From Rhodobacter sp. (GTDB taxonomy: Bacteria; Pseudomonadota; Alphaproteobacteria; Rhodobacterales; Rhodobacteraceae): a DNA stretch of 64,000 bases. Both the position numbers and the translations under genes were made by a program. The stretch is taken from positions 714 to 64,713 of the forward strand of contig JADCDI010000040.1 in the NCBI GenBank assembly GCA_020251025.1, read 5' to 3'. Under the pieces are notes generated by a model, which saw only the letters and a list, made by a program, of their open reading frames with translations, was not told where the DNA came from and made no database searches. Of this stretch, positions 55,930 to 58,702 are shown piece by piece (within the stretch, counting starts at the first letter, position 1; every line of letters begins with the position of its first letter).

Positions 55930-55960
55930 AAACCGCGCCGGGACACCGGCGCGGTTTTTT
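55930..55960 (+). terminator. Rho-independent terminator of the rpsF operon
   Basis: AAACCGCGCCGG-GACA-CCGGCGCGGTTT followed by a T run (TTTTTT). Confidence 0.75.
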
Positions 55961-56116
55961 CATGGCCGGGGCCGGCCCTTCTGCCTGATCCCGGGCGGGG
56001 GCTGTCCGGTGCAGGGGCCATTGTTGGATGTTCTGCGGTTGAAGCAGCGGGGGCCATTGCCGCCACGCGCGACGGGGCAGATTCCGGGACAACTTTGTTC
56101 AGCGGTTTTCCTTGTT

Positions 56117-56306
56117 GTTGAACAAAGATCGATGTTCAACAGATTTATCCCTGACGAGGATACCTGAAATCATGGAAGACTTTCTTTCCTGTTCAACAAT
56201 TCATGTTCAACGGAATTGTTTCTTGTGGTACATGGATGCATGTTCAACGGAGTTGGCGGCTGCGGAGGAAGACATGATGTTCAACAAAAGCTTGTCGGGT
56301 TGAACA
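56117..56306. repeat. Array of seven (A)TGTTCAAC octamers (5 direct, 2 inverted) in AT-rich DNA; candidate operator/iteron array
   Basis: TGTTCAAC at 56133, 56190, 56204, 56241 and 56278. GTTGAACA at 56117 and 56299. The last site ends 4 nt before ATG 56311. Confidence 0.75.
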
Positions 56307-56310
56307 TGCC

Positions 56311-57327
56311 ATGAACCGGCATCATTCCCCGCTTGCCCGCGCGGTTTATCAGGAACTTCTCGGCTCATTTGGCGAAGGGCAGGTTGCCGCCCTGCGCGGA
56401 TCGCCCGCGCTGGAGGAGCGGTCGGGGCGCAGATACTGGTACGACAGCTACCGTGTCGGGGATCGCGTTCGCAAGCGCTACATCGGCGAGGATACGCCCG
56501 ATCTGGCAAAGCGCATGGCGCTGCACCGAGAAGATGCCCGGCGCAAGAAGGAGGGGGCCGCCCACCGGGCAAGGCTGGTGCGCCTGCTGCGCGCCGAAGG
56601 CTTCCTGCCGATCGATGGCGGCACGGGAGCCGTCTTGAATATGCTGGCGAAGACCGGTCTGTTCCGGACGGGCGGCACGATTGTGGGAACCTGCGCCTTC
56701 CGGCTTTACGAGGGTGAGCTTGGATTGCCCTTGGGTTCCCTTTCCGCTGCCGGGACGGATGACGCCGATATGGTGCGGTTTGAACGGCTGTCGCTGGCCC
56801 TTGACGACAGGGTCGACGCATCCCTGCCGGAAAGCTTTCGCGATCTGGAATTTGCCCCCGTGCCCGGCCCGGACGGGGTGACGGTCTGGAAATGCAGGCA
56901 GACCCGGTCCGGGGCGGTGATCGATTTCCTGACGCCGTCGATCCGGGGGGGGGAAGGGATCCGGGACCTGCCTGCCTTGGGGACTTCGGCGCGGTCGCTG
57001 GATTTTCTGGACTATCTGATTGCTGATCCGGTCAAGGCCGCCGTTGCGTACCGATCCGGTGTTCTGGTGCAGGTTCCGCGGCCGGAACGCTATGCCATTC
57101 ACAAGCTTGTGGTGGCCGACCGGCGGCAGGGCGGACCTGACGCCGCGAAAGCGCGGAAGGATCGGGCGCAGGCCGCTTTCCTGATTGCCGCTTTGGCCAG
57201 GGACCGGCCGGAGGCGCTGCGCCTGGCCTATGAGGCGGCGATCGGGAACGGGGTGAGGTGGCGCGACCGGATTGCCGCCAGCCTGAAGCGCATGCCGCAG
57301 ACCTTTTCCGTACTGGAAGCCCTGTAG
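56311..57327 (+). CDS. GSU2403-like nucleotidyltransferase-fold protein (AbiEii-related), stand-alone
   Basis: 338 aa. N-terminal ...YQELL......G...ERSGRRYWYDSYRVGDRVRKRYIG and a central/C-terminal ...FRTGGTIVGTCAFRLYEG..G......TDDADM...VIDFLTP...YAIHKLVVADRR...AKARKDRAQAAFL. Matches my recollection of this family; not verified by search. Confidence 0.5.
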   Translation: MNRHHSPLARAVYQELLGSFGEGQVAALRGSPALEERSGRRYWYDSYRVGDRVRKRYIGEDTPDLAKRMALHREDARRKKEGAAHRARLVRLLRAEGFLPIDGGTGAVLNMLAKTGLFRTGGTIVGTCAFRLYEGELGLPLGSLSAAGTDDADMVRFERLSLALDDRVDASLPESFRDLEFAPVPGPDGVTVWKCRQTRSGAVIDFLTPSIRGGEGIRDLPALGTSARSLDFLDYLIADPVKAAVAYRSGVLVQVPRPERYAIHKLVVADRRQGGPDAAKARKDRAQAAFLIAALARDRPEALRLAYEAAIGNGVRWRDRIAASLKRMPQTFSVLEAL

Positions 57328-57439: not shown

Positions 57440-58702
57440 ATGCGTCGGGTGGTTGTTACGGGTCTGGGCATGGTCACGCCGCTTGCCTGCGGGGTCGGAA
57501 AGACCTGGGAACGCCTGATTGCGGGTCAGTCGGGGGCCGGGCCGATCACGCGGTTCGATGCCTCGAACGTGGTGACGCAATATGCCTGCGAGATTCCGAT
57601 GGGCGATGGCAGCGACGGCACCTTCAACCCGGATGACTGGATGGAGCCGAAGGACCGCCGCAAGGTTGATGATTTCATCCTGTACGGAATGGCGGCAGCG
57701 GTTCAGGCGGTGCGCGATTCCGGCTGGGAGCCGGTGACGGAAGAGGACCGTTGCGCGACCGGGGTCTTGCTGGGTTCCGGCATCGGCGGGCTGTCTTCGA
57801 TTGCGGAGACCGCCGTTCTGATCCGGGATAAGGGGCCGAAGCGGGTATCGCCTTTTTTCATTCCGGCGGCGCTGATCAATCTGATTTCCGGTCAGGTTTC
57901 GATCCGCTTCGGGTTCAAGGGGCCGAACCATGCGGTGGTGACCGCCTGTTCAACCGGCGCACATGCCATTGGCGATGCGGCGCGGCTGATCCAGTGGGGG
58001 GATGCCGATGTGATGATCGCGGGCGGTGCCGAAAGCCCGATCAGCGAGATCGGCATCGCCGGCTTTAACGCCTGCAAGGCGCTGTCCACCAAGCGCGCCG
58101 ATGATCCGGCCAAAGCATCGCGCCCCTATGATGTGGACCGGGACGGGTTTGTGATGGGCGAAGGCGCGGGCGTGGTGGTGCTGGAGGAATACGGGCACGC
58201 CAGGGCGCGCGGCGCGAAGATTTACGCCGAAGTTCTGGGATACGGCCTGTCGGGCGATGCCTATCATATCACCGCCCCCAGCGAGGACGGCGACGGCGGG
58301 TTCCGCAGCATGAAGATGGCGCTCAGACGCGCCGGGCTGCAACCTTCGGACATCGACTATATCAATGCCCACGGCACCAGCACGATGGCCGATACCATTG
58401 AACTGGGCGCGGTGGAGCGGCTTTTGGGCGATGCGGCGACAGGGGCGACCATGAGTTCGACGAAATCGTCGATCGGGCATCTTCTGGGGGCGGCGGGCGC
58501 GGTCGAGGCGATTTTCTGCGTGCTGGCGATCCGCGATGGCATTGCACCACCGACGATCAATCTGGATACCCCAGAGGTTGCCGCAAAGCTTGATCTGGCG
58601 CCGAATGTGGCACGCAGGCGCAAGATCGATGTTGCGCTGTCGAATTCCTTCGGGTTCGGCGGCACGAACGCGTCGTTGATCCTGGGGCGGGTGACAGACT
58701 GA
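57440..58702 (+). CDS. fabF: 3-oxoacyl-ACP synthase II FabF
   Basis: MRRVVVTGLGMVTPL..G....W..L..G.SG...I..FD, active-site ...VVTACSTGAHAIG..., ...NAHGTST..D..E, SNSFGFGGTNASL. Internal ATG 57440. Confidence 0.93.
   Translation: MRRVVVTGLGMVTPLACGVGKTWERLIAGQSGAGPITRFDASNVVTQYACEIPMGDGSDGTFNPDDWMEPKDRRKVDDFILYGMAAAVQAVRDSGWEPVTEEDRCATGVLLGSGIGGLSSIAETAVLIRDKGPKRVSPFFIPAALINLISGQVSIRFGFKGPNHAVVTACSTGAHAIGDAARLIQWGDADVMIAGGAESPISEIGIAGFNACKALSTKRADDPAKASRPYDVDRDGFVMGEGAGVVVLEEYGHARARGAKIYAEVLGYGLSGDAYHITAPSEDGDGGFRSMKMALRRAGLQPSDIDYINAHGTSTMADTIELGAVERLLGDAATGATMSSTKSSIGHLLGAAGAVEAIFCVLAIRDGIAPPTINLDTPEVAAKLDLAPNVARRRKIDVALSNSFGFGGTNASLILGRVTD

Follow-up and report, generated by a model that had tools for sequence, protein, structure and literature searches.

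A candidate self-repressing nucleotidyltransferase of alphaproteobacteria, with predicted palindromic operators on its promoter

AbiE-type systems and the gene after rplI

AbiEi and Rv2827c repress the operons of nucleotidyltransferase (NTase) toxins by way of tandem pairs of inverted repeats that straddle the promoter; Prv2827c has two such pairs, with a 13-bp gap inside each, and in both systems non-cognate operators are left unbound (PMC7319586). AbiEi consists of a DNA-binding domain and a C-terminal domain that is predicted to be NTase-like (PMC7319586). Here we consider a gene for a 338-residue NTase of the GSU2403 type, preceded by a cluster of copies of the octamer TGTTCAAC, in a 64,000-nt stretch of DNA from Rhodobacter sp. 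(contig JADCDI010000040.1; the whole stretch is called the window below). It seems probable that the octamers are half-sites of the gene's own operator, and that the protein, as a DNA-binding NTase, represses its own synthesis, forming an autoregulated module that needs no partner. The evidence is all in silico, and comes from the architecture of the sites, their linkage to the gene across different genomic contexts, their covariation with the N-terminal domain of the protein (N-domain), and the assignment of the protein to the NTases.

In several respects the locus resembles AbiE/MenAT (AbiEi–AbiEii of Streptococcus agalactiae; Rv2827c–Rv2826c, MenA3–MenT3 of Mycobacterium tuberculosis). The enzyme is again an NTase of the Pol-beta superfamily, for which we propose autoregulation; tandem inverted repeats again lie on the promoter (whose elements are here predicted), and in our case co-vary with the protein; the lack of cross-binding between operators in the known systems is paralleled by the specificity classes described below; and the body of our structural model matches MenT3/TglT by fold (Foldseek probability 0.84). 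In contrast to AbiE, there is one gene only, flanked by the rplI terminator upstream and fabF downstream, with no AbiEi-type partner and no neighbour conserved among 80 loci; the proposed DNA-binding domain is modelled as a three-stranded beta sheet rather than a winged helix-turn-helix; the half-sites are of 8 bp rather than 23 bp; and the Pfam family is PF12281, not DUF1814/PF08843, with no PADLOC match. Two of the features that define AbiE are thus lacking here: its Pfam family and its partner gene. The kinship with AbiEii put forward in the original prediction holds at the level of superfamily and fold (where MenT3/TglT come behind the unrelated NTase-like protein 5uvd and ANT(2'')-Ia), but not at that of an AbiEii Pfam or PADLOC match. 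While the AbiE-like regulatory logic was already known, and the name GSU2403/PF12281 is in use in RefSeq, what our comparisons suggest in addition is an autoregulated NTase with a fused beta-sheet DNA-binding domain, an operator architecture common to the family, and a candidate recognition code.

Paired half-sites and their linkage to the gene

The window contains 12 copies of TGTTCAAC/GTTGAACA, compared with 0.76 expected from dinucleotide-preserving shuffles, none of which reached 12: the clustering is real and far beyond chance. Seven exact copies lie within 56117–56306, five on the plus strand (starting at 56133, 56190, 56204, 56241 and 56278) and two inverted (56117 and 56299). All seven coordinates had been given exactly in the original prediction, as had the 37-bp spacings between 56204, 56241 and 56278 and the gap of 4 nt to the start codon. 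An eighth half-site with one mismatch (TGTTCAGC, at 56096) brings the span of the array to 56096–56306. The array DNA begins past the rplI terminator and ends 4 nt short of the ATG at 56311, and it is AT-rich, as had been noticed (GC content of 43.5% in 56100–56299, against 66% for the window). The other five copies in the window (4403 on the minus strand, 20544, 23241, 47835 and 57947) are all single and have no partner arm; three of them (20544, 23241 and 57947), clearly inside reading frames with high GC3, read CTG-TTC-AAC (Leu-Phe-Asn, in preferred codons). The earlier observation that the octamer is elsewhere isolated was right, although there are five such copies, not three, and one of them is at 57947, not 57948.

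The true repeat unit is the palindrome TGTTCAAC-N13-GTTGAACA, with the octamers as its half-sites. When up to three mismatches (<=3) were allowed, this palindrome was matched three times in the window, each time in the array (shuffle expectation 0.04): perfectly at 56278, with one mismatch at 56096 and with two at 56204. The exact octamers at 56133, 56190 and 56241 are orphan left arms. A register of 37 bp, made up of a 29-bp palindrome and an 8-bp spacer, unites the copies at 56204, 56241 and 56278, and the copies at 56096 and 56133 stand in the same register with each other. Because 56096–56146 and 56204–56254 form a direct repeat of 51 nt (73% identity), the array is likely to have arisen through tandem duplication of a unit comprising palindrome, spacer and next left arm, followed by decay of some right arms. 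Thus, what had been taken for an iteron-type array of direct repeats would be, in this lineage, a duplicated and partly decayed form of the canonical promoter-operator with two palindromes that is described below, and the element GTTGAACA-N8-TGTTCAAC, given earlier as a pairing of sites, is not a unit but the junction between two adjacent ones. In loci L001–L003, whose proteins are 83–90% identical to that of the window, all eight half-sites are invariant and the DNA between them is variable, which is a clear phylogenetic footprint, orphan sites included.

A genome scan for relatives gave at least 599 stretches matched by pattern, at least 584 of which encode a relative, and the comparisons that follow use the best 80 loci. 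Palindromes of the form T-N5-AC / N12-14 / GT-N5-A are present within about 100 nt of the start in 76 of these 80, and two palindromes in tandem in 58, with periods that cluster at 36–37 bp (N13 loops) or 43–47 bp (N12 loops). The start-proximal palindrome (O2) ends 1–7 nt before the ATG in nearly all loci. In the 36–37-bp class, TTG (usually TTGAC) occurs in the loop of the first palindrome in 22/32 loci, compared with 1/32 for the second loop, and the last bases of the spacer, read on into the first four of the second palindrome, give NATGTN, most often TATGTT; the -35-like and -10-like elements are 16–18 nt apart in 20 of 23 loci. This layout is, to judge from its sequence, that of a repressible promoter, in which the first operator brackets the -35 element and the second extends over the -10 element, start site and entire short leader. 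Some distant members (about 35% identity, with the motif YWYF rather than YWYD; L232:2283-2485, Rhizobium phaseoli pRphaN161b, and L233:2283-2485, Agrobacterium fabrum pAt) carry just one palindrome, a long one (GTTATACTGTTTTTGAAAAACAGTATAAC), which lies about 15 nt ahead of an ATG with a normal GGAG Shine–Dalgarno sequence.

The genomic surroundings of these sites are diverse. The NTase gene directly follows rpsF–rpsR–rplI in 29 of the 80 loci (L001–L079, in genomes labelled Rhodobacter, Tabrizicola, Gemmobacter and Cereibacter), and the gene on its 3' side is fabF only in the three closest relatives, being otherwise that for an EamA-type transporter or trigger factor. The suggested insertion of a single gene between rplI and fabF therefore does not hold in the sense of a recent event. 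A tyrosine integrase gene is immediately upstream of the sites in seven loci, and repA/repB of repABC replicons adjoin in seven; in the window, there is no integrase near the locus and no rep gene. PLSDB contains 449 plasmids with a homologue, from Rhizobium, Sinorhizobium, Agrobacterium, Paracoccus and roseobacters. No partner or regulator gene is conserved beside the NTase gene among the 80 loci, in agreement with the earlier description of a gene without a partner. On Roseibium/Labrenzia plasmids (L081:525-7541 of Roseibium sp. Sym1; L026, L037, L039, L045, L048) a gene for a MucR/Ros-family regulator lies convergently after that for the NTase, with repABC a few kb away from the NTase gene and, in two loci, a ParE-like open reading frame nearby.

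The exact palindrome was also found in at least 120 metagenome contigs, with the NTase gene directly adjacent in 16 among the matches listed. It is present in 29 viral contigs, in none of which is there an NTase gene, and these are probably chance matches; tblastn of the NTase against phage genomes gave no match. From the persistence of the arrangement in such different contexts, the operator would seem to belong to the NTase gene and not to the neighbourhood, and the expectation that gene and array travel together is borne out by the 76 of 80 orthologous loci that have palindromes before the gene. Some metagenome contigs (L135:3492-4542, L125, L143 (twice), L154, L164, L226, possibly L190) have a two-gene module, of a 124-aa protein (MAKISASKPPA...) and an overlapping gene for one of 210 aa, with a near-perfect TGTTCAACaaaatattattttGTTGAACA 13–14 nt before its ATG; neither protein shows a Pfam match or any likeness to the NTase N-domain. 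In L135 this module adjoins DUF3323/DUF2399 and a large SMC-like gene.

The protein, and residue 46 as a candidate reader of the half-site

The protein, whose orthologues are 55–99% identical to it, matches the Pfam family PF12281 (NTP_transf_8) over residues 105–310 (model 3–216 of 218) with 194.9 bits against a cut-off of 26.3 and an E value of 2.3e-57, and its plasmid homologues (33–58% identity) are named 'GSU2403 family nucleotidyltransferase fold protein' in RefSeq, so the fold recognized in the original prediction has been well chosen. In an alignment of 21 sequences G121, G122 and D153 are invariant and T149 and D151 nearly so, and E205 and an H264-K265-L266 motif are conserved too; the signature of Pol-beta-type enzymes (an hG[GS] turn rich in glycine, with a DxD carboxylate pair, D151/D153) is present. 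By sequence, then, this appears to be a member of the NTase family with intact catalytic motifs. A first AlphaFold model, made from 21 close homologues (predicted local distance difference test, pLDDT, 53.7), was replaced by one from 43 sequences (pLDDT 85.1, predicted template modelling score, pTM, 0.84), and Foldseek comparison of the body of the protein with the Protein Data Bank (PDB) returned NTase folds: NTase-like 5uvd (probability 1.0), ANT(2'')-Ia (0.97) and the MenT3/TglT match already mentioned, which has template modelling (TM) scores of 0.3–0.4. No other Pfam family was found on the full protein (AbiEii, PF08843/DUF1814, included), NCBIfam and PADLOC scans gave no match, and PDB searches with sequence profiles of the full-length protein and the N-domain gave only noise and no solved relative; Foldseek against viral structures produced no significant match. 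Literature searches on PF12281/NTP_transf_8/GSU2403, DUF6788 and PF20586 yielded no function, operator or DNA binding (only one irrelevant expression table), and a search on the octamer itself found only primers.

The N-domain has, in both AlphaFold models, beta strands at 31–37, 40–49 and 52–60 followed by a long helix (63–95), and is also modelled with a helix at 7–19. The strands, which bear the invariant residues Y42-W43-Y44, R48, G50 and Y57, and the helix are confidently predicted in the 43-sequence model, with good pLDDT. Pfam gave nothing meaningful for the first 105 residues (GIY-YIG, E 0.17). A profile of the domain retrieved 331 clusters (at 50% identity) from among 1.84 billion representatives, almost only as fusions to PF12281, and the full-length matches are PF12281 proteins of about 340 residues. 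The YWY domain thus seems to be a hallmark of a narrow, mostly alphaproteobacterial subgroup of PF12281, and not a widely shared module. One relative, P0251 (458 aa), has an extra T5orf172/GIY-YIG-like N-terminal domain ahead of its YWY and NTase domains.

The arm-type DNA-binding domains of integrases (P4-like, HPI and lambda-type) consist of a three-stranded antiparallel sheet and then a helix, a fold that the modelled N-domain weakly resembles, and bind short sites in direct and inverted orientation; unlike them, the domain considered here is fused to an NTase rather than a recombinase, and the window offers no recombination context. A looser parallel, possibly one of analogy only, is with CapRel(SJ46), in which one polypeptide, with no partner gene, unites the effector enzyme with the domain that controls it, but which is a pyrophosphokinase of a different fold (its Foldseek match, at a probability of 0.02, is meaningless).

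The arms of the palindromes fall into more than ten classes, including TGTTCAAC, TGTACAAC, TGTACTAC, TGGACTAC, TGTTCTAC, TACCCCAC, TACCCTAC, TGCCACAC and TATACTAC. Of the 58 loci with two palindromes, 41 have the same left arm in both, compared with 15% of pairs from different loci. Among 338 alignment positions, residue 46 holds the most information on arm class (mutual information 2.11 of 3.15 bits); it also has the top pairwise association over all pairs (phi 0.64), and is still the top position among pairs with C-domain identity of at least 70% (phi 0.60). The runners-up in the mutual information and all-pairs analyses (33, 35, 55, 13 and 14) are all N-terminal. Among the close pairs they include C-domain positions (171, 104 and 178), so that only residue 46 is robust to that control. 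Serine at this position goes with the core GTTCA (TGTTCAAC) in 18/18 loci, valine with GTACA (TGTACAAC) in 6/6, histidine with ACCCC (TACCCCAC) in 19/22 and glutamine with ACCC(T/G) (TACCC(T/G)AC) in 4/4. The combination of S46 with TGTTCAAC is found in two clades that lie apart on the C-domain tree, and again in a further S46 member on a Paracoccus plasmid; Q/R46 is found with TACCC(T/G)AC in at least four scattered lineages. In the model, residue 46 follows Y-W-Y-D/E on the central strand, and strand alternation would give positions 33/35, 46 and 55 the parity appropriate to one face of the sheet. Even among loci that have kept their place after rplI (e.g. L004:3284-5017, L006, L013, L055) the arm class varies (TGTTCAAC, TGTACTAC, TGTACAAC, TGGACTAC and others), from which it appears that operator specificity has drifted within the syntenic rplI–NTase locus.

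Features of the locus, competing explanations and a possible mechanism

The features of the locus are collected in Table 1. The rplI terminator, placed correctly in the original prediction and made up of a hairpin and a T6 tract, is invariant across the four close relatives compared, and probably isolates the downstream NTase gene transcriptionally. Half-site B appears to occupy the place of a second palindrome with a decayed right arm. Two candidate promoters can be drawn, TTGTTT (56216)-17 nt-CATGTT (56239) and TTGGCG (56253)-17 nt-GATGTT (56276), and a transcript from the upstream one would include GGAGGA and the short upstream open reading frame (uORF). This uORF crosses palindrome E, and its stop codon lies 7 nt ahead of the main ATG, for which there is no separate Shine–Dalgarno sequence. 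The frame of the uORF and the purine block in front of it are kept in L001–L003 but are not general in the family. The uORF may provide translational coupling to the main reading frame, or be a fortuitous product of the palindrome, as ATG...TGA is inherent in aTGTTCAAC-N13-GTTGA. Between the rplI terminator and the array, a direct repeat GC(A/G)GGGGCCATTG occurs twice, 36 bp apart (56011–56059), and the block 56016–56060 is more conserved than its flanks in the close relatives of the window (a comparison of four sequences).

Table 1. The rplI–NTase interval of the window: predicted sites, domains and reading frames (SD, Shine–Dalgarno; CDS, coding sequence)
Feature	Position	Strand	Remarks
Intrinsic terminator of rpsF-rpsR-rplI	55930..55960	+	Perfect 12-nt arms 55930-55941/55946-55957, then T6
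Palindrome A, TGTTCAGC-N13-GTTGAACA, 1 mismatch	56096..56124	.	Both arms invariant in window and L001-L003; left part of 51-nt duplicated unit 56096-56146
Orphan half-site B (TGTTCAAC)	56133..56140	+	8 nt past palindrome A
Orphan half-site (TGTTCAAC)	56190..56197	+	14 bp upstream of palindrome C, outside 37-bp register, invariant in four relatives
Palindrome C, TGTTCAAC-N13-GTGGTACA, 2 mismatches	56204..56232	.	-35-like TTGTTT in loop, 56216-56221
-10-like CATGTT, overlapping orphan half-site D	56239..56248	+	CATGTT 56239-56244, 17 nt after TTGTTT; half-site D 56241-56248
SD-like GGAGGA and 9-codon uORF (MMFNKSLSG, stop)	56264..56303	+	GGAGGA 56264-56269; uORF 56274-56303
Palindrome E, perfect TGTTCAAC-N13-GTTGAACA	56278..56306	.	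Ends 4 nt before ATG; counterpart of start-proximal operator (O2) of related loci
N-terminal domain, aa 1-100	56311..56610	+	Proposed DNA-reading domain; S46 codon 56446-56448
PF12281 NTase domain, aa 105-310	56623..57240	+	Pfam match, invariant columns, Foldseek
Complete NTase CDS, 338 aa, stop codon included	56311..57327	+	

The reading that we prefer, of a protein acting on its own promoter, agrees with the earlier description of the gene as self-contained and probably autoregulated, in that the repeats travel with the gene across contexts and co-vary with the N-domain. Several observations count against it. A few orthologous loci (L023, L072 and L235 of Dinoroseobacter) have no clear palindrome; periods of 37 and of 44–46 bp differ in helical phase, and so imply no single cooperative geometry; the covariation is a correlation on related sequences, in which pairwise statistics are not independent; and the likeness of the N-domain to integrase arm-type domains (3rmp_C, 3jtz and 3ju0) is weak and purely structural, with no link at the sequence level (Foldseek probability 0.14–0.72, E 0.4–3.4; identities of 21–22% for 3rmp_C and 3jtz and 25% for 3ju0). 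Both candidate promoters of the window fit the family geometry but appear weak, being poor matches to -35 and -10 elements, and a strict sigma-70/terminator scan of the region called no promoter. Finally, the palindrome is not exclusive to the NTase family, the same one being found before the ATG of the unrelated two-gene module in at least six metagenome contigs.

This last observation lends some substance to the idea that the palindromes are bound by another regulator, encoded by the host or by a mobile element, for which the NTase gene is merely one target. The pair of 124-aa and 210-aa genes preceded by TGTTCAACaaaatattattttGTTGAACA, in several high-GC metagenome contigs, is without similarity to the NTase N-domain, and MucR/Ros and other regulators are frequent neighbours. 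We nevertheless consider such a regulator improbable: the arm changes between close syntenic loci, and tracks residue 46 best of all 338 positions; on chromosomes, plasmids and integrase islands from different orders alike, the sites are found with the gene; and no regulator gene is conserved beside the NTase gene.

Could the array instead be a centromere-like or iteron-like site for the maintenance of a plasmid or island, with the protein as its site-specific binding factor and repression a secondary matter? The family is common on repABC plasmids (the 449 PLSDB records) and often near repA/repB or integrases, its many specificity classes resemble incompatibility groups, and in the window the array numbers eight sites instead of four. 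Canonical loci, however, have only two palindromes, which are placed exactly on the promoter, and the 29 chromosomal loci beside ribosomal protein genes are without a rep or par gene; no ParA-type or Rep partner is conserved, there is no evidence of an AT-rich unwinding element or DnaA box, and we know of no role for an NTase domain in partition. A maintenance function is thus very unlikely. Plasmid iterons or an origin (direct repeats of about 17–22 bp beside rep) were rejected as such, the unit here being an inverted repeat of 8-bp arms on a promoter that is found also in chromosomal rplI loci. DnaA boxes, the alphaproteobacterial LexA box (GTTC-N7-GTTC) and repABC parS were dropped too, since neither spacing nor symmetry agrees: N10 separates the GTTC cores of the neighbouring direct copies at 56190 and 56204, and the unit has the form 8-N13-8.

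We give as little credence to the possibility that the palindromes work as hairpins in RNA or single-stranded DNA (as an attenuator, a block to translation in the leader, or a cruciform) rather than as operators for a protein. Both arms do change together between loci, as stem covariation would give, and the start-proximal palindrome would lie in the short leader, directly before an ATG without a Shine–Dalgarno sequence. Yet two independent stems need not share a sequence, whereas the arms of the two palindromes are identical in most loci (41/58, as above); mismatches between arms are not biased towards wobble pairs on the sense strand (8 G-U, 15 A-C and 12 transversions); the window leader folds no better than shuffled sequences (z 0.69), and Rfam gave nothing near a gathering score. 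In addition, the conserved orphan half-sites have no partner arm, and the first palindrome, bracketing the -35 element, would be mostly untranscribed. Most improbable of all is that a tyrosine recombinase uses the octamers as its arm-type sites, in an attachment region, whether remnant or active, of an island inserted after rplI. In favour of this are the resemblance of the N-domain fold to arm-binding domains, the integrase gene immediately upstream in seven loci, and the variable DNA downstream of the NTase gene where that gene follows rplI. Against it, no integrase lies near the locus in the window, the placing of the sites relative to the NTase start codon and the promoter elements is the same in every context, and it is with the NTase protein that they co-vary.

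Returning to self-repression by the NTase, the following mechanism may be proposed. The sheet of the N-domain (residues ~30–60, with helix 7–19) would read sites of 8 bp (T-N5-AC), and their variable core would be contacted by residue 46, which is on the central strand. Two inverted sites, 21 bp from start to start (8 + N13 + 8), would form one palindrome, and a canonical locus has two palindromes with a period of 36–37 bp, the first bracketing the -35-like TTGAC and the second overlapping the -10-like NATGTN and the short leader and ending 1–7 nt before the ATG. Because the palindromes lie on predicted promoter elements, their occupancy would block RNA polymerase, and the resulting negative autoregulation would keep the enzyme low and constant. 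In the window lineage, tandem duplication of the operator unit would have given the three palindromes and the orphan half-sites, all of them conserved. By analogy with AbiEii/MenT, the NTase may nucleotidylate RNA or another macromolecule and be harmful when overproduced, which would explain tight self-repression without an antitoxin gene: this repression, or the fused DNA-binding domain itself, would then replace the separate antitoxin-repressor of AbiE-type modules.

A more far-reaching version, which we offer tentatively and regard as somewhat doubtful, is that of a partner-less, fused NTase toxin–antitoxin or defence module, whose arm-like domain represses the promoter and also restrains or targets an AbiEii/MenT-like NTase, and in which a simple code, linking residue 46 to base 6 of the half-site among other pairs, has diversified into at least ten non-cross-reacting classes across multipartite alphaproteobacterial genomes.

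GSU2403/PF12281 proteins are widespread (at least 584 confirmed stretches, and 449 sequenced plasmids), and for this family there is now a concrete and testable anatomy, in the form of a delimited operator, a surface predicted to read the DNA and, as a candidate for specificity, one residue open to exchange between the natural classes. The natural series of proteins and operators would be well suited to the study of drift in DNA-binding specificity at a locus of conserved synteny. Should the enzyme turn out to inhibit growth, it would represent an NTase module with repressor and effector fused in one protein, rather than one with a separate antitoxin.

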